A stretch of DNA of 64,000 nt from Peptococcaceae bacterium UBA5757 (GCA_002418965.1 DIFD01000022.1:142070-206069), one strand, 5' to 3'. Shown: positions 10,234-63,010, numbered from the stretch's first letter. Numbers and translations are program-made. Notes: generated from the sequence alone by a model not told the origin.

Positions 10234-10503
10234 GGTGACGAGAGTTGAATTAACCCGCCTCTGCCTGGCTAAATTTATGGTTTGCTTTGTTATCCTTTCT
10301 AGGCATACATCAAGTATGCCGTCGTGCTAAAGCTGTACAAAACGCAAATTTTTCTGACGCCGACGGTCGAAGAGTTTTTTGTCTCCAGCCGTACATCCAG
10401 CAAGGCGGATGACGCCGCTTTACTGAATGTAAAGCAAGGGGAATAACACCGCATAGAGTGCGGATGGAGACAAAAAACCGGATTGGATTCGGCTCCCGTC
10501 ACC
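10234..10503 (-). ncRNA. unclassified 270-nt structured RNA element / interspersed repeat, copy 1 (homologous to 55753-56022)
   Basis: ~75-80% identical to the second copy over the full length. Closing helix ggtgacg/cgtcacc plus internal hairpins (ggcatac-atcaa-gtatgcc; gcgg-atgacg-ccgc; gctttac-tgaat-gtaaagc; ccgca-tagag-tgcgg) with compensatory differences between copies. 3' end (minus sense) sits 3 nt from the yqfC SD. Strand is inferred from gene context only. Confidence 0.45.
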
Positions 10504-10529
10504 TTAAACTTATGACTAAATCTGCCAAA

Positions 10530-10598: not shown

Positions 10599-11279
10599 TT
10601 ATTTCTCGTTCATAACTCTATTCATAATTTTTGCCTTGGGAGGTCCTAATATTTCCGACAAAATAATCCCATTAAGCAAATTATTTTTTTCAACCAGGTT
10701 TACAAGCTCCCAAGGATTTGTAACCTGGTCTCTTGTTGTTAAAGCCGGAGTTTGTCTTCCCACGACTGTACCTGTTTTCTGATAAGGCGAGGATTCACTT
10801 CCGAAATCGCCTTCTAAAGATGATTCACCCTCCCCATAAGGAGTGCCTTCATAAGAGGATTGCCCCTGCCCAAAAGAACCGCCTTCAGTAGATATTATCG
10901 GCTTGACCTGCTGAGACAATTTCATTGTACGAGGCTTAACTTTTGTGGGTTCCACATAACGACGTACAACATCTTCCCATGAAGTGAGCGCAGACTGATC
11001 TTGCGGAGGCTCATCGTCTAGTTCTTCAATAGCAGCGCCTTCAAAGTACGTGCCCTCAGATTGAGGGTATTCGTCATCTTCTTCCCAGCTTGAATCCCAT
11101 CTTTGAGATCCAACTGTTTGCCTGCTTTGCCTTTGGCGCATTTGGGCTTCATATGCTTCTTTGAGCCTTTTTTGCTGCTCAACTTTATTCGTTTGGCCTG
11201 TACGAGTCTTATTTTTGGTCGCATTTGTGATTACTCTTACGACCACCAGCAAAATGATAAAATAGATCAGACCGCTCAT
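10599..11279 (-). CDS. hypothetical membrane-anchored protein with a long acidic/Gln/Ser/Gly-rich low-complexity region (occupies the B. subtilis yqfB position)
   Basis: 226-aa ORF. N-terminal TM helix (LIYFIILLVVVRVI), then a disordered Q/E/S/G-rich sequence. No recognisable catalytic motif. Confidence 0.55.
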   Translation of the reverse strand: MSGLIYFIILLVVVRVITNATKNKTRTGQTNKVEQQKRLKEAYEAQMRQRQSRQTVGSQRWDSSWEEDDEYPQSEGTYFEGAAIEELDDEPPQDQSALTSWEDVVRRYVEPTKVKPRTMKLSQQVKPIISTEGGSFGQGQSSYEGTPYGEGESSLEGDFGSESSPYQKTGTVVGRQTPALTTRDQVTNPWELVNLVEKNNLLNGIILSEILGPPKAKIMNRVMNEK

Positions 11280-11311: not shown

Positions 11312-12328
11312 TTATTCGTTCATTTTATCACCGGGATTAAGGTTGGATATGCTTTCTCTCATTTTTGTATCGGATGTGATATTTTTCATTTGATAATAAT
11401 CCATAACACCCAGCAGACCTTTACGGAAGGCTTCAGCCATAGCTTGCGGGATTTCTGCTTCCGCTTCCACAACCTTAGCACGCATTTCTACAACGGCGGC
11501 CTTCATTTCCTGTTCTTTAGCAACAGCCATCGCACGACGTTCTTCGGCCTTGGCCTGTGCAATACGCTTATCGGCTTCTGCCTGGTCAGTCTGTAATTGT
11601 GCCCCGATATTACGCCCAACATCAACATCGGCAATATCGATGGAAAGGATTTCAAACGCGGTACCGGCATCTAAACCTTTACCCAAAACGGTCTGGGAAA
11701 TCCGGTCCGGATTTTCCAAAACCTGTTTGTGGGTTTCACTGGAACCAACGGTGGTTACAATCCCTTCACCAACGCGGGCAATGATGGTTTCTTCCCCGGC
11801 ACCTCCGACCAAACGGTCAATATTAGCTCTGACGGTCACTTTTGCTTTGGCACGAACTTCGATTCCGTTCTTAGCTACTGCAGCCACAACAGGTGTTTCA
11901 ATCACTTTTGGGTTGACGCTCATCTGAACAGCTTCCAAAACATTACGTCCGGCCAAATCGATGGCAGCGGCACGCTCAAACGGCAAAGGAATATTGGCTC
12001 TCTCAGCGGCAATTAAGGCATTCACGACACGGTCTACATTACCACCGGCAAGAAAATGCGCTTCTAGCTTTCTTACATCAACATTCAAGCCGGCTTTGTC
12101 TGCCTTGATTTGCGGAATGATGATTTTAGCGGGTGATACACGGCGCAAGCGCATGCCGATCAAATCAAAAATCCCTACTTTCACTCCGGCCGCTAAGGCT
12201 GAGATCCATAAACCCAAAGGAATAAAACTCAAAACAAATAAAACTACGATAATGATGATAACTATGAAAATAATCGATGATAAACTAATAAGCTCTAAAA
12301 CCCCAACAATGGATAAAGCTGATAACAT
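11312..12328 (-). CDS. floA: flotillin-like SPFH/band-7 protein FloA (YqfA)
   Basis: 338 aa. N-terminal hairpin membrane anchor, SPFH domain, Ala/Glu-rich coiled-coil ([33 protein letters not shown]). Confidence 0.85.
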
Positions 12329-12358: not shown

Positions 12359-13684
12359 TTATTCCCTGATTTGCTGGACAACAACTCTCGTACCTTCCAC
12401 CTTGATCACTTCAATTCTAGAATGGATATCAATGTATTCTCCCTGAGTTACAACGTCCAAACGTTGGCCATCAAAATCCCCTGCACCAGCGGGGCGCAGC
12501 ATGGTTATAGCAACTCCCTTTTTACCTGCATACTGTTGCAAACCGTAATCAGGAGCGACATATCCCTGTTCGTTCTCTTGTTTTAGGGATAAGATCAATT
12601 TACTCCAAACTTTTCTTGTCTTCTTATTTTTAACCATAAACACCACCAATAATACAGATGCTACTAAAGAGATACCAATGGCGATCAGGGCATATTCTGC
12701 ATTGGGCGAGGCCAAAAATATGGAACCGAATACAGAGAGTATACCCAAAACACCAGCAACTCCAAAACCCGGGATAATAAATATTTCCATAACGATGAGG
12801 AATAGTCCTGCAACAAATAGTAATATTGTTCCCAAGCCTGCATAACCTGCCCAATAATTGCCAGCAAAAAAGCCGATAAAAGCCAATAAACCTGCCGCTC
12901 CGAAGACACCAAAACCGACGGTAAATACTTCAATCAATATCCCTGCAATCCCGATTGTAAGCAAAATGGAGGCTACGTAGGGGCTGGAAAGCCATTTGAC
13001 CAACCTTTCCGGAAAAGTGGGCACAACTTCTACCACATTAGCTCCCGGGAAATACGCTTCTACCAGTTCTTCCTGAGTTGCAATGGTAGCGTCGCTGATA
13101 GCATATTGCAACGCCTCGCTATCGGACAAAGTCAATAACTCCCCTTCCTTGACCAGATCAGGAATCTCAATAGAGCTGTCGGACATGGCGGCTGCTATTG
13201 CGCCATCTTTCCCTCTTGCTTCCGCAGTGGCTCTTAATTGTGCCGTCCACATGGAAACAACTTTAATGTCCGCTTTTTCTTCTCCGGCCCGCGGTTCCGC
13301 CGCACCGATGGTACTAGCCGGAGCCATCGCCAGTTTTTCACCCGCCAAAGCGATCAAGGAACCGGCTGAGATAGCTTTGGTATCAACATAACAAATAGAA
13401 GGTACCTGACAATTTAAAATCAGATCTTTAAGATTAATGGCACTGTCAATTTCACCGCCATACGTATCAATGCGGAAGATAATGCCCTCCGCTCCATCTG
13501 TAATAGCATCCGTATAGGCCCGCTGCACAAAAGCAAGCGTACCCGAACCAATATCTCCCTCAATTGGGATCACATACACATCCGTATCGTTTATAGCAAA
13601 AGCCTGCAAAGGCATAAAAACCCCTAAAACAATTATGATAATTAAAATCCATCTGAGATACTGCCTTAAAAAAAAGTTAAACAT
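12359..13684 (-). CDS. nfeD: NfeD-like membrane-bound ClpP-class serine protease (YqeZ)
   Basis: 441 aa. N-terminal signal/TM, ClpP-like protease domain, multi-TM region, C-terminal OB-fold. Classical partner of floA. Confidence 0.85.
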   Translation of the reverse strand: MFNFFLRQYLRWILIIIIVLGVFMPLQAFAINDTDVYVIPIEGDIGSGTLAFVQRAYTDAITDGAEGIIFRIDTYGGEIDSAINLKDLILNCQVPSICYVDTKAISAGSLIALAGEKLAMAPASTIGAAEPRAGEEKADIKVVSMWTAQLRATAEARGKDGAIAAAMSDSSIEIPDLVKEGELLTLSDSEALQYAISDATIATQEELVEAYFPGANVVEVVPTFPERLVKWLSSPYVASILLTIGIAGILIEVFTVGFGVFGAAGLLAFIGFFAGNYWAGYAGLGTILLFVAGLFLIVMEIFIIPGFGVAGVLGILSVFGSIFLASPNAEYALIAIGISLVASVLLVVFMVKNKKTRKVWSKLILSLKQENEQGYVAPDYGLQQYAGKKGVAITMLRPAGAGDFDGQRLDVVTQGEYIDIHSRIEVIKVEGTRVVVQQIRE

Positions 13685-13828
13685 ACGGATACCCCCCCAT
13701 TCTCTTCTTCTGTTATCATACCATAAATTTTTTTAACAAATAACAATCTACTCGCTGCACAGCGATGGTAGCCACATAAGCCGGTCGCTTATCGTTTGCA
13801 GCGATTGCATCGAAACCTGTTTGTTCCT

Positions 13829-13856
13829 TTGCAATGTGTTATGTGGATATTATACT
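13829..13856 (+). promoter_or_regulatory. candidate sigma-A-like promoter (TTGCAA-16-TATACT) for a small plus-strand transcript
   Basis: TTGCAA at 13829-13834, TATACT at 13851-13856. Confidence 0.3.
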
Positions 13857-13862
13857 ACAATT

Positions 13863-14015
13863 CGGCGGCAAAACCTGCGATTTCACCAAACGCCAGGCGT
13901 TTGGGTTGCGCTTTAAGCGCAACCGCCGTTGCGGCGTAATGAACACAATCACGCCTTTGGCGTGACACCGCCATTCGCGGCGCTCAAGAGCGGAGCTCTT
14001 GAGTTCTTGTGTTTA
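13863..14015 (+). ncRNA. candidate ~150-nt sRNA made of consecutive GC-rich hairpins ending in an intrinsic terminator
   Basis: Hairpins ccaaacg-ccagg-cgtttgg, gttgcgc-tttaa-gcgcaac, cgccg-ttg-cggcg, tcacgcc-tttg-ggcgtga, ccgc-cattc-gcgg, then ctcaagag-cggag-ctcttgag followed by ttcttgtgtttatt. No ORF. Confidence 0.3.
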
Positions 14016-14103
14016 TTATACCATATCAGATCATAATTATATGCAAAATCTATCAAAAGTCTAATCAGATAACTACACTTACTTTACTCTATGCTATTAA
14101 TAT

Positions 14104-14134
14104 AAAAAAAGCGGAGCTTTAGCTCCGCTTTTTA
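14104..14134 (-). terminator. bidirectional rho-independent terminator downstream of rny
   Basis: aaaaaaa-gcggagc-ttta-gctccgc-tttttatt. Confidence 0.7.
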
Positions 14135-14143
14135 TTAAAAAGA

Positions 14144-15757
14144 CTATTTGGCGTAATCAACAACCCTCGTCTCACGAATGATCACAACTTTGATCTGTCC
14201 GGGATACTCCAGCTCGGATTCAATCTTTTTGACGATATCACGGGCAATACGGGCCGCGGACAAATCATCCACTTTTTCCGGCTCAACAATGATCCGTACT
14301 TCCCGACCGGCCTGAATCGCATAAGAAGTTTTGACTCCATCAAATGATTCCGCAATCTCTTCAAGCTTCTGCAAACGCTTGATATAATATTCCAAGGTTT
14401 CTCTACGCGCACCTGGTCTTGCGGCAGAAATAGCATCCGCAGCCTGTACCAACGCAGCTTCTAAACTATTTACCTCAATATCTCCATGATGCGCGGCAAT
14501 GGCATGAATCACTTCAGCGCTTTCTTTATGCTTTTTAGCTAAATCGGCTCCGATCACAACGTGGGGCCCTTCTACCTCATGGTCTACTGCTTTGCCCAGG
14601 TCATGTAACAATCCGGCCCGTTTGGCAATCGCCACATTAGCACCCAATTCCGTTGCCATCAACCCGGCCAGATGGGACACTTCTACAGAATGCTTTAATA
14701 CATTTTGTCCATAACTGGTACGGAAATGCAGGCGTCCCAATAATCTGACCATTTCCGAATTCAAGCCATGTACATTTGTATCAAAGGTAGCCTGTTCCCC
14801 TTCTTCCTGAATCTTTTGATCGACTTCTTTTTTGGCTTTTTCTACCATTTCTTCGATTCGTGCGGGGTGAATCCGACCGTCTAAGATCAGTTTTTCCAAA
14901 GCAATGCGGGCTACTTCTCTACGAATCGGATCAAAACCGGATAAGATCACAGCTTCAGGTGTATCATCAATAATCAAATCAATTCCGGTTAAAGTTTCCA
15001 AGGTGCGGATATTACGTCCCTCACGGCCGATGATACGGCCTTTCATCTCTTCATTAGGAAGGTCAACAACAGACACCGTCGTTTCCGCAACATGGTCAGC
15101 GGCAACCCGTTGAATGGCGGAAGCAATAATCTCCCGTGCCTTCTTTTCTCCTTCTTCTTTGGCATGATCACGAATCTCTTTGATCATGATCGAAGCTTCA
15201 TGCTGTACTTCTTCTTCTAAGCTGGACAAAAGCATCTGTTTGGCTTCTGTTGAAGTTAAACCGGAAATTGCCTCCAACTCTTTTAGTTTTCGTCCCTGAA
15301 TCTCTAAAACATGCGCTTTCGCCTGCTCAATTTCCTGTTCCTTTTTGTGAAAATTATCTTCCTTCTTTTCCAGGGCTTCCAATTTATAATCCAAAGATTC
15401 TTCTTTTTGCATCAAACGCTTTTCTTGCCGGGTAATCTCACTTCGTCTTTCTTTATTCTCCCGATCAGCCTCAGTCCGAATCCTAATAATTTCTTCTTTC
15501 GTTTCTAATAGGGCTTCTTTCTTTTTGCTTTCTGATTCCCTTTTTGCATCAATGATCATCTTGGCAGCGGATTCTTCGGCACTTTTGATCGTTCCCTCCG
15601 CAATGTTTTTTCTCATGATATAACCAACCATACCACCGACCACTAAAAAGATAATTGCTATTATAATTTCTTTAATCACCCTGTCACCTCCAAAACCATT
15701 TATAATAAATATCTGATTTGATAAATAAAAAAATCGAGCCGGGAACTCGATTTTCAA
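14144..15757 (-). CDS. rny: ribonuclease Y
   Basis: 537 aa. N-terminal TM, coiled-coil, KH domain, HD domain ([13 protein letters not shown]...LLHDLGK). Confidence 0.92.
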
Positions 15758-16009
15758 AAGACTAATGTAGCTTTACCAGGAATTTTTAATCTAAGTCTAT
15801 ACTCTTATATATCTTTTTGTATAAGTTTATTGCACAACGTATTGACTTGTTGTCGACATAATCCTCTTTTAACAACCCATATACAAAATTCATCTATATA
15901 AAACCATATCAGACTTAAAATCCAAGCTACATTTATATTATGTTACAGGATCAATTTGCTATAACATAATCAATATCTAATAAAAATCATCCCTAACAAA
16001 TTTATTTTA

Positions 16010-16579
16010 TTATTTTCCCAGCTTATTGTCAAGCAAATTTATTTTACCCTCTTCAAATAATGTATAAATTTTAGCGCTAGGGAAGCCACGTCCGGCCGCA
16101 CGACGCATTAAAGTATAGATAAATTTCTTCTTTCTTTGTTCATCGGCTTCAATTTGAGTAGGAAAAGAAGACGCTTCTTTATGCAAATACTTTATTAGTG
16201 CTGCTGTTTCTTCTTCATCTGTGTATTCATTCTCAAGACTTTGATCTATCAAATCCCTGTTCACACCACGGCGTTGCAATTCCGCACGGATGTAAGAACG
16301 GCCTTTTAATGTATAATTTTTTCTTTCAAAGATAATAGCTTCCGCCAATTTTTCTTCATCGAGAAGCCCTACTTCGACCAAAGAATCTACCACAAGAGCC
16401 GCCGTTTCGCAAGAAGCACCTTTTTGTTTGAGTTTTTGTTTTAATTCAAAGGCAGAATACGGACGCCGGGCTAGACACGCAATAGCAGCAGCCCTGAAAC
16501 GATTTAGCCCAGGGCTGCTGTTTGTCTCATCAATTCTATTTTTTAATTTTTTAACATCATTTTCTTTTTTTTTAATCAT
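16010..16579 (-). CDS. recX: recombination regulator RecX
   Basis: 189 aa immediately downstream of recA. RecX-like helical repeats. Confidence 0.8.
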   Translation of the reverse strand: MIKKKENDVKKLKNRIDETNSSPGLNRFRAAAIACLARRPYSAFELKQKLKQKGASCETAALVVDSLVEVGLLDEEKLAEAIIFERKNYTLKGRSYIRAELQRRGVNRDLIDQSLENEYTDEEETAALIKYLHKEASSFPTQIEADEQRKKKFIYTLMRRAAGRGFPSAKIYTLFEEGKINLLDNKLGK

Positions 16580-16586
16580 AGGTCAA

Positions 16587-17633
16587 TTAATTATCATCAT
16601 CCTCTAAGCCTTTCGGCTCGGCACTTGCCCCTATCTTGATCATGGGCGTATCTTTAGCCATATCACGGATTTTTTGTTCCAATTCATTCATGACTTCAGG
16701 ATGTTGCTGAAGATAGGTTTTGGCGTTTTCTCTACCCTGACCGATACGTTCACCGTTATATGAGTACCAACTACCGGTTTTACCAAGCAATTTCATTTCC
16801 GATGCGATATCCAGGATGTTCCCTTCTTTGGAAATGCCCGTGCCGTACATAATATCAAATTCCGCTGTTTTAAAAGGTGGGGCCACCTTATTTTTAACGA
16901 CCTTTACTTTTGTCCGGCAGCCGATTGAATCGGTGCCTTGTTTGATCTGCTCACCCTTGCGGACTTCTAAACGGATAGAAGCATAAAATTTTAATGCCCT
17001 ACCGCCGGACGTGGTTTCAGGATTGCCGAACATAACCCCTACTTTTTCACGAATCTGATTGATAAAGATAATGCACGTGTTGGATTTACTGATCGCGCCT
17101 GTTAATTTGCGCAAGGCCTGGGACATCAGCCGGGCTTGCAAGCCGACAAAGGCATCACCCATGTCGCCTTCTAATTCTATCCTGGGAACAAGCGCCGCCA
17201 CGGAGTCGATGACGATGATATCCACGGCACCGCTTCTGGTTAAGGCTTCGGCAATTTCCAAAGCCTGCTCACCGGTATCGGGCTGCGAAATCAATAAATT
17301 TTCCGTATCCACGCCAAGTTTCGCCGCATAAATTGGGTCCAGGGCGTGTTCGGCGTCGATAAACGCCGCAATACCGCCTTTTTTTTGCGCCTCAGCAATA
17401 ATATGTAAAGAGACAGTCGTCTTACCGGAGGACTCCTGACCAAAAATTTCGATTACACGCCCTCTGGGCACGCCGCCAATACCCAACGCAAGATCCAACG
17501 CTAAAGAGCCAGTTGGGATTGCTTCAATCCCGGCTCTGATATTGTTATCCCCCATGCGCATGATTGCACCTTTGCCAAATTGCTTTTCGATCTGCGCCAA
17601 TGCTGCTTCGAGCGCCTGTGATTTATCTGCCAT
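16587..17633 (-). CDS. recA: recombinase RecA
   Basis: 348 aa. GPESSGKTT Walker A, highly conserved RecA core. Confidence 0.97.
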
Positions 17634-55752: not shown

Positions 55753-56022
55753 AAGGCGAGGTAAGTGCAACTAATCTGCCTCGGCCTTGTTAGTCTGTGT
55801 TTTGCTTTGTTTTCGTCCTAGGCATACATAAATATGCCTTTCGTCCTCAACCTTGTAAACCGTAAATTTTCACGACGCCGACGGTCGGAGAGTTTTTAGC
55901 TCCTAGCCGTGCGTCAGGCAAGGCAGACGAAGCTGCTTTACCTATGGTAAGCAAGGAGGATAATGCCGCATTGCGTGCGGTTGGCATCTAAAAACCGGGT
56001 TGGGTTTGACTCCCCTTGCCTT
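55753..56022 (-). ncRNA. unclassified 270-nt structured RNA element / interspersed repeat, copy 2 (homologous to 10234-10503)
   Basis: Starts 5 nt after the metG stop and ends 12 nt before the tatD SD. Same hairpin order as copy 1, with compensatory substitutions: closing helix ggcgagg/ccttgcc with one G·U on the plus reading; gcag-acgaag-ctgc; gctttacc-tat-ggtaagc; ccgca-ttgcg-tgcgg. Confidence 0.45.
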
Positions 56023-56027
56023 AAAAT

Positions 56028-57977
56028 CTATTGTACTTTGGTTCCGGCAGGCATGGACGCAACTTCCAAGACTTCCAGGCGGTCTTTGCCCACGGCGGAA
56101 AGCAGCATGCCGTGTGATTCGATACCGCGGATGGTTCTGGGTTTAAGATTAGCGATCAAAATCAGATTCTTGCCCACCAAGTCTTCCGGCTCGTATTGCT
56201 CAGCGATCCCTGCCAAAACAGTTCTTTGCTCATCCCCTACCTGCAACAAAAACTGCAGCAGTTTATCGGCTTTGGGTACTTTTTTGCATTCCAGCACTTT
56301 GACCACACGTAAATCCAGTTTGGCAAAGTCCTCGATCGTAATCTCCTCACCAATGGGTGCAAATTCTTCTTTTATTACTTCTGTTTCTTCTTGAGACTGC
56401 GGTTCTTCTTCCACTACAATAGCCGCTTGTTCGTCGGCTTGCCAATCTATCCGGGGAAACAAAGGCTCCCCGCGGTCTATTTTAACGCCGACCGGGAACC
56501 GGCCCCAACTAAGACTATCCCAGGTCTGGACATCGGTATTGGCAACGATCCCTAATTGCTGCCAGACTCTCTGAGGCAAAGTGGGCATCACGGGCGTAAT
56601 CATAACCGTCACCAAACGGATGACCTCAGCCATATTGTACAAAACAGTTGCCAACTTCTCTTTTTCTTGCGCTTTATTGAGCGCCCAGGGGGCGGCATCA
56701 TCGATATATTTGTTGGCCTTATTCACGAGCTTCCAGACTTCCGCCAGCGCGCCCGCCCATTCCATATGATCCATTAGCTCTTCCACTTTTGCAGGCGTCA
56801 CTTTTGCCAGCTCGATCAAAGACGCGTCAAATTCAGTTCCCGGCCCCGCTGCCAGTACTTCACCGTTTTGAAATTTATTGAACATAGCGGTGGTTCGAGA
56901 AAGCAGATTGCCGTAATCGTTGGCCAGATCCACATTGATACGGCTGACTAAAGCCTCTTCCGAATAAGTGGCGTCGAGGCCATAGCCCATCTCTCTAATC
57001 AAAAAGTAACGGATGGCATCCACGCTGTATTTTTGTACCAAAATAACCGGATCGACCACATTGCCTTTGGATTTACTCATTTTGCCTTCGCCTAAAAGCA
57101 ACCAGCCGTGCGCCATCACTTTTTGGGGTAAAGGAATATCGGCGGCCATGAGGATAATGGGCCAGATGATGGTATGGAAACGGACAATATCTTTGGCCAT
57201 CAAGTGCACATCGGCGGGCCAGAATTTTTGATAAAGAGATTCGTCATCCGTATACAGTCCTAACGCAGAGACATAATTCAGCAAGGCGTCAAACCAAACG
57301 TAGATCACGTGCTTTTCATCAAACGGTACTTTAATGCCCCAATCGAAGGTAGTGCGGGATACGCACAGGTCTTCCAGCCCCTGTTTGACAAAATTAACCA
57401 TCTCGCTGCGGCGATTGGGCGGCTGGATAAAATCGGGGTTTTCTTCAATAAATTGCAGCCAACGATTGGTATATTTACTCATCTTAAAGAAATAGCTTTC
57501 TTCTTTGGTCAGCTCAGCCGGACGACCGCAGTCCGGACAGCAATGGGTTTCTCCCAATTGGCGTTCCGTAAAAAAGGTTTCGCAGGGCGTACAGTACCAA
57601 CCTTCATATTCGGCCTTGTAGATGTCGCCCTGGTCATAAATCTTTTGGAATATCTTTTGGGCAAATACTTTGTGGCGGGGTTCGGACGTACGCAAGAAAT
57701 CATCATATTCGATCTGCATGGTCTGCCACAAATCCTTGATCCCGGCCACGATCTCATCGACGAATAACTGGGGCTCTTTACCTGCCTCTTGAGCACGGCG
57801 CTGAATCTTTTGACCGTGTTCGTCTGTACCTGTTAAAAAATACGTTTCAAAACCCCGCATCTTTTTATAGCGCGTCATGGTATCGGCCGCCACCGTCGTA
57901 TAGGCATGGCCGATATGCAAATTACCGCTGGGATAATAGATGGGAGTGGTAATATAAAATGTAGGTTTTTGGTTCAT
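56028..57977 (-). CDS. metG: methionyl-tRNA synthetase with C-terminal EMAP/tRNA-binding domain
   Basis: Start MNQKPTFYITTPIYYPSGNLHIGHAY (HIGH motif) preceded by GGAGGT, KMSKS motif, C-terminal Trbp111-like domain. The ORF-track N-terminal extension to 58061 overlaps rsmI. Confidence 0.95.
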   Translation of the reverse strand: MNQKPTFYITTPIYYPSGNLHIGHAYTTVAADTMTRYKKMRGFETYFLTGTDEHGQKIQRRAQEAGKEPQLFVDEIVAGIKDLWQTMQIEYDDFLRTSEPRHKVFAQKIFQKIYDQGDIYKAEYEGWYCTPCETFFTERQLGETHCCPDCGRPAELTKEESYFFKMSKYTNRWLQFIEENPDFIQPPNRRSEMVNFVKQGLEDLCVSRTTFDWGIKVPFDEKHVIYVWFDALLNYVSALGLYTDDESLYQKFWPADVHLMAKDIVRFHTIIWPIILMAADIPLPQKVMAHGWLLLGEGKMSKSKGNVVDPVILVQKYSVDAIRYFLIREMGYGLDATYSEEALVSRINVDLANDYGNLLSRTTAMFNKFQNGEVLAAGPGTEFDASLIELAKVTPAKVEELMDHMEWAGALAEVWKLVNKANKYIDDAAPWALNKAQEKEKLATVLYNMAEVIRLVTVMITPVMPTLPQRVWQQLGIVANTDVQTWDSLSWGRFPVGVKIDRGEPLFPRIDWQADEQAAIVVEEEPQSQEETEVIKEEFAPIGEEITIEDFAKLDLRVVKVLECKKVPKADKLLQFLLQVGDEQRTVLAGIAEQYEPEDLVGKNLILIANLKPRTIRGIESHGMLLSAVGKDRLEVLEVASMPAGTKVQ

Positions 57978-62695: not shown

Positions 62696-63010
62696 TCTTT
62701 TTTCTTTTTTTTATCATTCCTGTAATTTCTATTGCAGCATAGCTAGAAACCAAATTGTCTACAGTCACTATCGCGTTAGGCTGGGCTTTACTGCTACTCA
62801 TAAAAGATACGGGTTATTTACAATTTTAGGAGTATGGTATGTGGATATTATACCACGGATCGATGGCAAACCCCCAGGTATTGCAAAGATAAAGCGTTTC
62901 AAATTACCGTGTAATACACACAATACACTAAAGACGTGACATCACAACATGTAGCACTTAAAAACCTTGCTCTTGAATATCTGTCCTTATTATATCAAAA
63001 ATGAGGACAA

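Follow-up and report, generated by a model that had tools for sequence, protein, structure and literature searches.

The 459-nucleotide (nt) spacer between rny and nfeD (positions 13685-14143) in a 64,000-nt stretch of DNA from Peptococcaceae bacterium UBA5757 (GCA_002418965.1 DIFD01000022.1:142070-206069; the whole stretch is referred to here as the window, and positions are counted from its first letter) is the home of a block of GC-rich hairpins. The hairpin cluster upstream of nfeD is genuine, and its functional core of ≈ 230 nt (≈ 13835-14063) is, as judged by comparison with a sister species, under purifying selection. Our tentative interpretation is that this core may encode, on the minus strand, a structured accessory leader upstream of the nfeD-floA-yqfB operon. 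An earlier reading from the sequence alone (the sequence-only reading) had placed the block at 13741-14020 and had proposed a plus-strand small RNA (sRNA) of ≈ 150 nt with its own promoter and terminator, and it had missed that both flanking genes, rny and nfeD, lie on the minus strand. The structured non-coding element as such is borne out by fold z-scores, hairpin counts, and low divergence, and it comes without an Rfam family.

If perfect local hairpins are counted as those with stems of at least 7 base pairs (bp), the block contains four of them, all inside 13886-14003, whose stems measure 7-9 bp and whose loops measure 3 nt. In 2000 dinucleotide shuffles of 13741-14020 the mean was 0.12 such hairpins and none of the shuffles reached four; within the 64-kb window, this block is the densest 280-nt stretch for hairpins of this kind. 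Compared with shuffles, the block folds with z-scores of -5.53 (plus strand) and -5.47 (minus strand). As regards the six or more hairpins with 7-8-bp stems claimed before, four perfect local ones were recovered, while cgccg/cggcg has a stem of 5 bp and ccgc/gcgg one of 4 bp on the plus strand; cgctgca/tgcagcg and ccacataa/ttatgtgg turned out to be long-range inverted repeats, ≈ 37 and ≈ 59 nt apart, instead of hairpins. Two of the hairpins are palindromes perfect over 19 and 21 nt, with the symmetry running into the loop, which RNA folding does not need, and the succession of an A-rich tract, three hairpins, and a T-rich tract is symmetric on both strands. From right to left, the features of the block are as follows.

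13983-14003, unstranded: hairpin 1, CTCAAGAGC-N3-GCTCTTGAG, 9 bp, followed by TTCTTGTGTTTATT on the plus strand.
13966-13982, unstranded: hairpin 2, 6 bp on the minus strand (CGCCGC/GCGGUG, one G.U) and 4 bp on the plus strand.
13949-13965, unstranded: hairpin 3, TCACGCC-N3-GGCGTGA, 7 bp, with TTGTGTTCATT next on the minus strand.
13937-13948, unstranded: tract reading TAATGAACACAA on the plus strand, complementary to 14007-14018 (12 nt, 92%).
13924-13936, unstranded: hairpin 4, CGCCG-N3-CGGCG, 5 bp.
13904-13924, unstranded: hairpin 5, GGTTGCGC(T)-loop-(A)GCGCAACC, 8-9 bp, with perfect arms GGTTGCGCT/AGCGCAACC.
13886-13904, unstranded: hairpin 6, CCAAACGC-N3-GCGTTTGG, 8 bp.
13845-13866, unstranded: 22-nt stretch, invariant in both species, with overlapping -10 boxes.
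13735-13834, unstranded: left part of the block as first delimited, carrying the cgctgca/tgcagcg and ccacataa/ttatgtgg inverted repeats.

Hairpins 1-3 are arranged as a possible four-way junction with loops of 3, 5, and 3 nt, which the predicted pairing of 13937-13948 with 14007-14018 could close. A further helix, helix 7, forms on the minus strand only.

The evidence for selection rests on two sequences, the window and a sister species (ENA ERZ21831159 contig_52, locus L008) that shares the rny-nfeD junction and the block, with 89.4% identity over 4.8 kb; a contig from the Joint Genome Institute (JGI) is identical to the window. The neutral reference is provided by the four-fold degenerate sites of rny and nfeD, which are 72% identical between window and L008. 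Along the spacer, identity to L008 is distributed as follows.

14045-14094: 74% (neutral).
14013-14063: 90%.
13935-14012: 93.6%, the best conserved part.
13885-13934: 86%.
13835-13884: 92%.
13735-13834: 71.7% (neutral).
13685-13734: 94%.

Between 13857 and 14012, there are 17 differences in 156 nt, where a neutral expectation of 28% divergence applies (binomial p = 2e-7). Measured against the four-fold sites, these segment identities therefore place the functional core at ≈ 13835-14063 and not at 13741-14020. The former coordinates hold for the hairpin part; their left third (13741-13834), which includes the first two of the supposed hairpins, is neutral, and the long-range pairings of 13735-13834 are lost in L008, so that this segment is, on the comparative evidence, probably outside the functional core. 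Within the core the hairpins have fared differently. Hairpin 1 (predicted at about -13 kcal/mol) is invariant in L008, as is the stem of hairpin 5, where both substitutions fall in the loop. Hairpin 2 shows two one-sided changes between G.U and G-C which retain the minus-strand pairing; hairpin 3 has acquired a C>G mismatch in its stem, hairpin 4 is gone (three changes on one arm, predicted 0 kcal/mol), and hairpin 6 is cut to 6 bp. In the 13937-13948 tract, the pair affected by the one L008 substitution is retained only on the plus strand, as G.U. The invariant stems (1 and 5), the pairing-keeping changes (2), and the weakened or lost others together point to selection on several hairpins, but not on all of them.

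On the question of the strand, the structure says little because the hairpins are palindromes. The computed energies and z-scores lean slightly toward the minus strand: the core of the window folds with -72.6 kcal/mol on the minus versus -70.0 on the plus strand, with z-scores of -5.13 versus -4.88, and in L008 the z-scores are -5.41 versus -3.25. Owing to G.U pairs, a number of helices are more stable when read from the minus strand, with hairpin 2 at -9.7 kcal/mol (minus) versus -5.6 (plus), and hairpin 3 in L008 at -8.1 (minus) versus -4.7 (plus). More informative are the flanking signals, which comprise three candidate promoters on the minus strand and the box on which the plus-strand proposal was built.

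14036-14063, minus strand: P1, TAGACT-16-TATAAT, promoter-like (10/12 matches).
14015-14023, minus strand: P2, perfect extended -10 box TGGTATAAT of the TGnTATAAT type, identical in L008.
13713-13725, minus strand: P3, TATGGTATGATAA, with the extended -10 box TGGTATGAT (13723-13715), ≈ 30 nt upstream of the nfeD ATG.
13829-13834, plus strand: TTGCAA, -35 box of the promoter proposed earlier, found by promoter scan.

The conserved extended -10 box of P2, which immediately precedes the hairpins in the minus-strand direction, had been overlooked. It is oriented toward the gene, and a transcript from it is predicted to start near 14008, leaving 5 nt before hairpin 1. In the window, all four minus-strand sites of TGNTATAAT lie in spacers upstream of minus-strand genes, and the three plus-strand sites are all inside genes. 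Boxes of the P2 type (ATGGTATAATAA) constitute the nfeD promoter in distant relatives. The P1 region is 90% identical in L008, where P1 itself is not found by the scan because the -35 box reads TAGGCT and the spacing has increased by 1 nt. P3 is conserved in L008 and has AATTTATGGTAT in common with the nfeD promoter of one of the compared loci (L005); its sequence marks it as the apparent ancestral proximal nfeD promoter. The P3 region is a 12/13 direct repeat of the P2 region (14013-14025). Two more -10 boxes lie in the 22-nt invariant stretch, a minus-strand TATAAT (13854-13849) and a plus-strand TATACT (13851-13856). A 16-nt sequence overlapping this stretch, GTATAATATCCACATA (13840-13855, minus strand), recurs exactly at 62838-62853 (minus strand) in the promoter of a putative tmk gene, and the motif GTATAATA-NN-CACA, with at most 2 mismatches, has 13 occurrences versus 4.1 expected; it is probably the -10 plus start-site consensus of the organism.

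What is observed are the hairpins, the selection that maintains them, minus-strand -10 boxes kept in L008, and a block missing from more distant relatives; transcription from P2, the minus strand as the strand of action, and a stabiliser role are inferred. In the proposed mechanism, P2 (14023-14015), possibly helped by P1, would start a transcript near 14008 that begins with ≈ 5 unpaired nt and then enters the GC-rich hairpin stack, hairpins 1-3 first; hairpins 5 and 6 would form a second leader domain together with a weaker helix that includes G.U pairing. Hairpin 3 scores as a minus-strand terminator with d = -11 (-41 in L008); with no working minus-strand terminator, read-through into nfeD is expected, and the leader transcript would cross the unconstrained 100-nt stretch and P3 on its way into the gene. 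The 5'-proximal hairpins may serve as 5' stabilisers or shield the RNA from decay by the 5'-end-dependent RNase J1 and RNase Y, and they may also help to insulate the operon at a junction beside rny that a rearrangement has made. The 90% conservation of 14013-14063 is accounted for by its being a promoter region, whereas a plus-strand sRNA ending at ≈ 14015 leaves it unexplained.

Several observations weigh against this leader. The pairing-keeping one-sided changes number three in the RNAalifold consensus of the minus strand and six in that of the plus strand; for the local hairpins only, the figures are 3 (minus) and ≈ 4 (plus), which gives no signal. At no pair is there a double compensatory change between window and L008. 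The ribosome-binding site of nfeD is not sequestered by the core in the predicted folds, no regulatory switch is visible in them, and P3 alone would suffice for nfeD, as in the relatives. Furthermore, hairpin 1 and its plus-strand T-rich tail are perfectly conserved, though the tail overlaps P2, and the weakening or loss of hairpins 3, 4, and 6 in L008 implies that not all hairpins are needed.

The genomic context of the block is peculiar to its lineage. Beyond the 90% cluster to which NfeD belongs there is no close homologue, the best one being 61% identical. In the distant NfeD relatives, mtaB-HIT-rpsU precede nfeD-floA-yqfB, and the spacer upstream of nfeD is short and AT-rich, with a -10 box of the ATGGTATAATAA type and without the hairpin block. 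In the RNase Y relatives (78-80% identical), recA-recX-rny are followed by ymdB, sometimes with spoVS, and the block is likewise absent downstream of rny. None of ymdB, spoVS, rpsU, and mtaB occurs within the 64-kb window. With rny-ymdB and rpsU-nfeD as the neighborhoods in relatives, the block falls exactly on a synteny breakpoint that is specific to this lineage, and the adjacency of rny and nfeD is, as far as the compared loci (L002-L006 and L011-L013) indicate, a lineage-specific rearrangement. An ortholog search among GTDB genomes with NfeD confirmed no relative. A covariance model of the core, run against all collected loci, matched only itself and L008; the check for conservation of the spacer suggested earlier found the block in the sister species and nowhere among the more distant relatives. 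blastn detected no further copy, neither in the window nor among plasmids and phages; exact-pattern scans gave zero matches in genome and viral contigs and two chance matches, in coding DNA, in metagenome contigs. These repeat-copy searches yielded no second copy, with the rest of the organism's own genome outside the window not covered. On these comparisons, the block appears to be an orphan, confined to a pair of sister species within an uncultured Bacillota lineage.

The same observations may also be read in other ways. There is a modest chance that the conserved 160-230-nt core is an undescribed, genus-restricted structured non-coding RNA that arose de novo at the rearrangement junction and has a function; its two domains would each comprise several hairpins that could form a four-way junction. 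As part of the same proposal, it would be a regulatory sRNA, or a convergent sense/antisense pair (from P2 and the -10 boxes at 13849-13856) controlling nfeD-floA as a membrane-stress operon. More doubtful is the stand-alone plus-strand sRNA of ≈ 150 nt, with its -10 box at 13851-13856 and hairpins 6 to 1 in its body, which would end at the T-rich tail of hairpin 1 (≈ 14012) or at the bidirectional rny terminator, would be antisense to any long nfeD leader, and would be possible if the promoter works without a -35 box. The proposed pair TTGCAA-16-TATACT (13829-13856) is indeed present in the window, where the promoter scan matches it at 9 of 12 positions, and together with the terminator-like hairpin it gives the unit its two ends. 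The pair is not kept in L008, however: the counterpart reads TTGTAA-23-TATACT, the scan finds nothing on the plus strand, and thus neither the -35 box nor the spacing is conserved. The spacing is broken by a 7-nt insertion, ATATAAA, which lies at ≈ 2835-2845 of L008 (≈ 13842-13845 in the window) directly downstream of the conserved TATAATATCC and looks, from its sequence, like a slippage duplication of ACATAA. What remains in favor of the sRNA is that its -10 region is invariant in L008, as are hairpin 1 and its tail, and that the left edge of conservation (≈ 13835) coincides with its promoter; the -10 box matches at 5 of 6 positions and has no TG extension. At the other end, hairpin 1 with TTCTTGTGTTT is flagged as terminator-like by a simple scan (5/8 T) and is the better of two marginal terminators. 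Its plus-strand score is sub-threshold, d = -3.8 versus +28 to +57 for the canonical terminators of this genome, and it is without the A/T-extended stems typical of them, so that the intrinsic-terminator look noted earlier after the final hairpin is marginal. Six one-sided substitutions retain plus-strand pairing, including a long-range stem and the junction-closing stem, but conservation runs 45 nt past the proposed 3' end, the plus-strand fold of L008 has the weaker z-score of -3.25, and no Rfam family covers the element. With the promoter lost in L008 and the terminator marginal, a plus-strand unit running from promoter to terminator is not well supported.

It is unlikely that the block is a scar left by a rearrangement or small insertion, with selection limited to the promoter boxes and to a barrier against transcription from either side. 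Here, a foreign piece of ≈ 290 nt would have entered the nfeD promoter when rny and nfeD became neighbors, duplicating the -10 region (TATGGTATAATAA/TATGGTATGATAA), and the hairpins would be inherited palindromes whose role does not go beyond that of a bidirectional roadblock or insulator. The location exactly at the synteny breakpoint agrees with this, as do the neutrality of a third of the piece, the two over-perfect palindromes of 19 and 21 nt, the symmetry of A-rich tract, three hairpins, and T-rich tract on both strands, and the 13-nt direct repeats TATGGTATAATAA and TATGGTATGATAA (12/13 identical) that flank the block 300 nt apart. On the other hand, a 13-nt repeat with one mismatch is roughly estimated at 0.06 to 0.5 expected in an AT-rich 459-nt spacer, and the boxes could have converged; terminal inverted repeats are absent, searches of the window and of genome, metagenome, viral, plasmid, phage, and protein collections turned up no further copy, and the combination of unchanged stems and changing loops speaks for selection acting on the hairpins as such. 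A short minus-strand sRNA or attenuator, in which the transcript from P2 (≈ 70 nt, hairpins 1-3) stops at the TTGTGTTCATT tail after hairpin 3, is quite improbable. P2 is conserved, 13935-14012 is the best conserved segment (93.6%), and a terminator-like site is flagged at 13966-13948, but that site scores d = -11, and in L008 the stem mismatch together with a T>C change in the tail lowers it to d = -41, where it is no longer flagged; the possible antiterminator pairing is 4 bp only, and the conserved hairpins 5 and 6 and the 22-mer downstream are left unexplained. Least probable, and indeed very unlikely, are DNA-level palindromic operators for dimeric regulators of the nfeD promoters: although the palindromes are perfect, sit among promoter boxes, and in hairpins 1 and 5 combine invariant half-sites with variable centers, four to six unrelated palindromes need as many regulators, no regulator gene is adjacent, and GC-rich sequence, centers of 1-3 nt, end-to-end packing, and a position 130-310 nt upstream of the proximal promoter do not favor operators.

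A number of conventional identities were considered for the block, and most of them were discarded. Rfam 15 gave zero matches for the whole window at gathering score; at E <= 10 on 13000-15000, all matches fell on the rny terminator (14023-14268) and none in the block, so that the Rfam comparison once suggested for it returned no known family there. ARAGORN detected no tRNA or tmRNA genes in the window. That the block holds no open reading frame (ORF) is effectively right, since the ORFs have only 21-47 amino acids (aa) and the 39-aa one called by JGI (13855-13974, minus strand) has no Shine-Dalgarno sequence, shows mostly non-synonymous differences, and is frameshifted in L008; a small protein gene was rejected on these grounds, and six ORF translations had no homologue in the protein collection. 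A type I toxin-antitoxin system was set aside likewise, as none of the 21-47-aa ORFs is hydrophobic. A degraded rpsU (S21) pseudogene was considered as well, one ORF reading RFKR...GVM; tblastn of four S21 proteins stayed at chance level (E about 10-50). Against a riboswitch or attenuator speak the lack of a competent minus-strand terminator, the free ribosome-binding site, and helices that are perfect, with minimal, species-variable loops; for an attenuator with antiterminator, the alternative pairing opposing hairpin 3 has only 4 bp (GGCG/CGCC). For a sigma-W promoter (TGAAAC-N16-CGTA), the nearest match in the spacer is TGAAAT-N15-CGAA, which is not conserved in L008. The case of a dispersed repeat, miniature inverted-repeat transposable element (MITE), or repetitive extragenic palindromic (REP) element is less clear-cut: no terminal inverted repeats were visible in the sequence; the flanking direct repeat (12/13) coincides with the promoter boxes and is within reach of chance.

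The surroundings of the spacer are made up of the following minus-strand genes and signals.

16587-17633, minus strand: recA.
16010-16579, minus strand: recX.
14144-15679 (to 15757 from the upstream TTG), minus strand: rny (TIGR03319, E = 4e-231).
14106-14133, minus strand: intrinsic terminator of rny, bidirectional, with a 12-bp A/T-extended stem and T runs on both sides.
12359-13684, minus strand: nfeD.
11312-12328, minus strand: floA.
10599-11279, minus strand: yqfB, followed by yabP and yqfD, also on the minus strand.

The rny terminator scores d = +45 on the minus and +28 on the plus strand and is present in L008 too. It occupies the right end of the spacer and bounds the hairpin block without being part of it. 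Hairpin 1 (13986-13997) and the left arm of this terminator (14107-14118) share 11 of 12 nt (AAGAGCGGAGCT/AAAAGCGGAGCT), a likeness that may be due to chance or to a partial terminator duplication. On the other side of rny, the recX-rny spacer (15680-16009) is 92.7% identical to the sister species versus 72% at four-fold sites. This conserved spacer may be a regulatory 5' untranslated region (UTR) of rny, or it may encode an N-terminal extension with the TTG (15757) as its start. In B. subtilis, RNase Y autoregulates via its own 5' UTR (PMC10303841). Elsewhere in the window, two paralogous non-coding elements of ≈ 270 nt (10239-10510 and 55760-56040) are ≈ 78% identical over ≈ 270 aligned columns. 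One of them sits between yqfB and yabP, and its Rfam search (the 10-kb copy, at E <= 1) gave no match. Neither is related to the hairpin block, as had been stated before, and blastn within the window likewise finds no similarity.

If functional as proposed, the block would be a regulatory RNA structure born at a synteny breakpoint and then kept by selection, and it would add an extra control layer to the flotillin/NfeD membrane operon. The reach is narrow, covering one pair of sister species in an uncultured lineage of the Bacillota, and the finding is a modest lead. With respect to the sequence-only reading, the core has shifted, the plus-strand promoter has proved not to be conserved, and a conserved minus-strand promoter has been added.

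With regard to known systems, the likeness to the REP sequences and bacterial interspersed mosaic elements (BIME) of enterobacteria is superficial. Both are clusters of short, GC-rich, perfect hairpins between co-directional genes, possibly serving as decay barriers or weak two-way terminators, but REPs are one family with hundreds of copies per genome, whereas the hairpins of the block all differ and neither the window nor any of the collections searched yielded a second copy. Genes for trans-acting sRNAs, with a sigma-A promoter and an intrinsic terminator, resemble the block in being ≈ 150 nt long, non-coding, and multi-hairpin, with promoter- and terminator-like ends in this genome; they differ in that the promoter of the block is not conserved in L008, its terminator is sub-threshold, and neither an Rfam family nor a seed or target was identified for it. 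We know of no such hairpin block at the nfeD-floA locus of B. subtilis. The orthologous downstream operon there (nfeD-floA-yqfB-yabP-yqfD, with yqeZ-yqfA-yqfB corresponding to nfeD-floA) is sigma-W-controlled (PMC3498285), whereas the present spacer is without a promoter of the sigma-W type; a literature search on nfeD/floA leaders brought up nothing relevant beyond this sigma-W regulon paper. The leader of aprE and the 5' stabiliser of ermC are examples of 5' stem-loops that stabilise Bacillus mRNAs (reviewed in PMC3997798); another structured 5' UTR is that of B. subtilis hbs (PMC5737220). The block differs from them by having six or seven consecutive hairpins instead of one and by lying upstream of a second, proximal promoter, it has no sequence homology to them, and its transcription and stabilising effect are only predicted. 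What it shares with them is a stable hairpin within ≈ 5 nt of the predicted 5' end, expected read-through into the operon, and the lack of a ligand-sensing architecture, in an organism that encodes RNase Y. The block belongs to no described family, every plausible function is of a known kind, and, by analogy, it would work most like the 5' stabiliser hairpins and structured 5' UTRs of the Bacillota.

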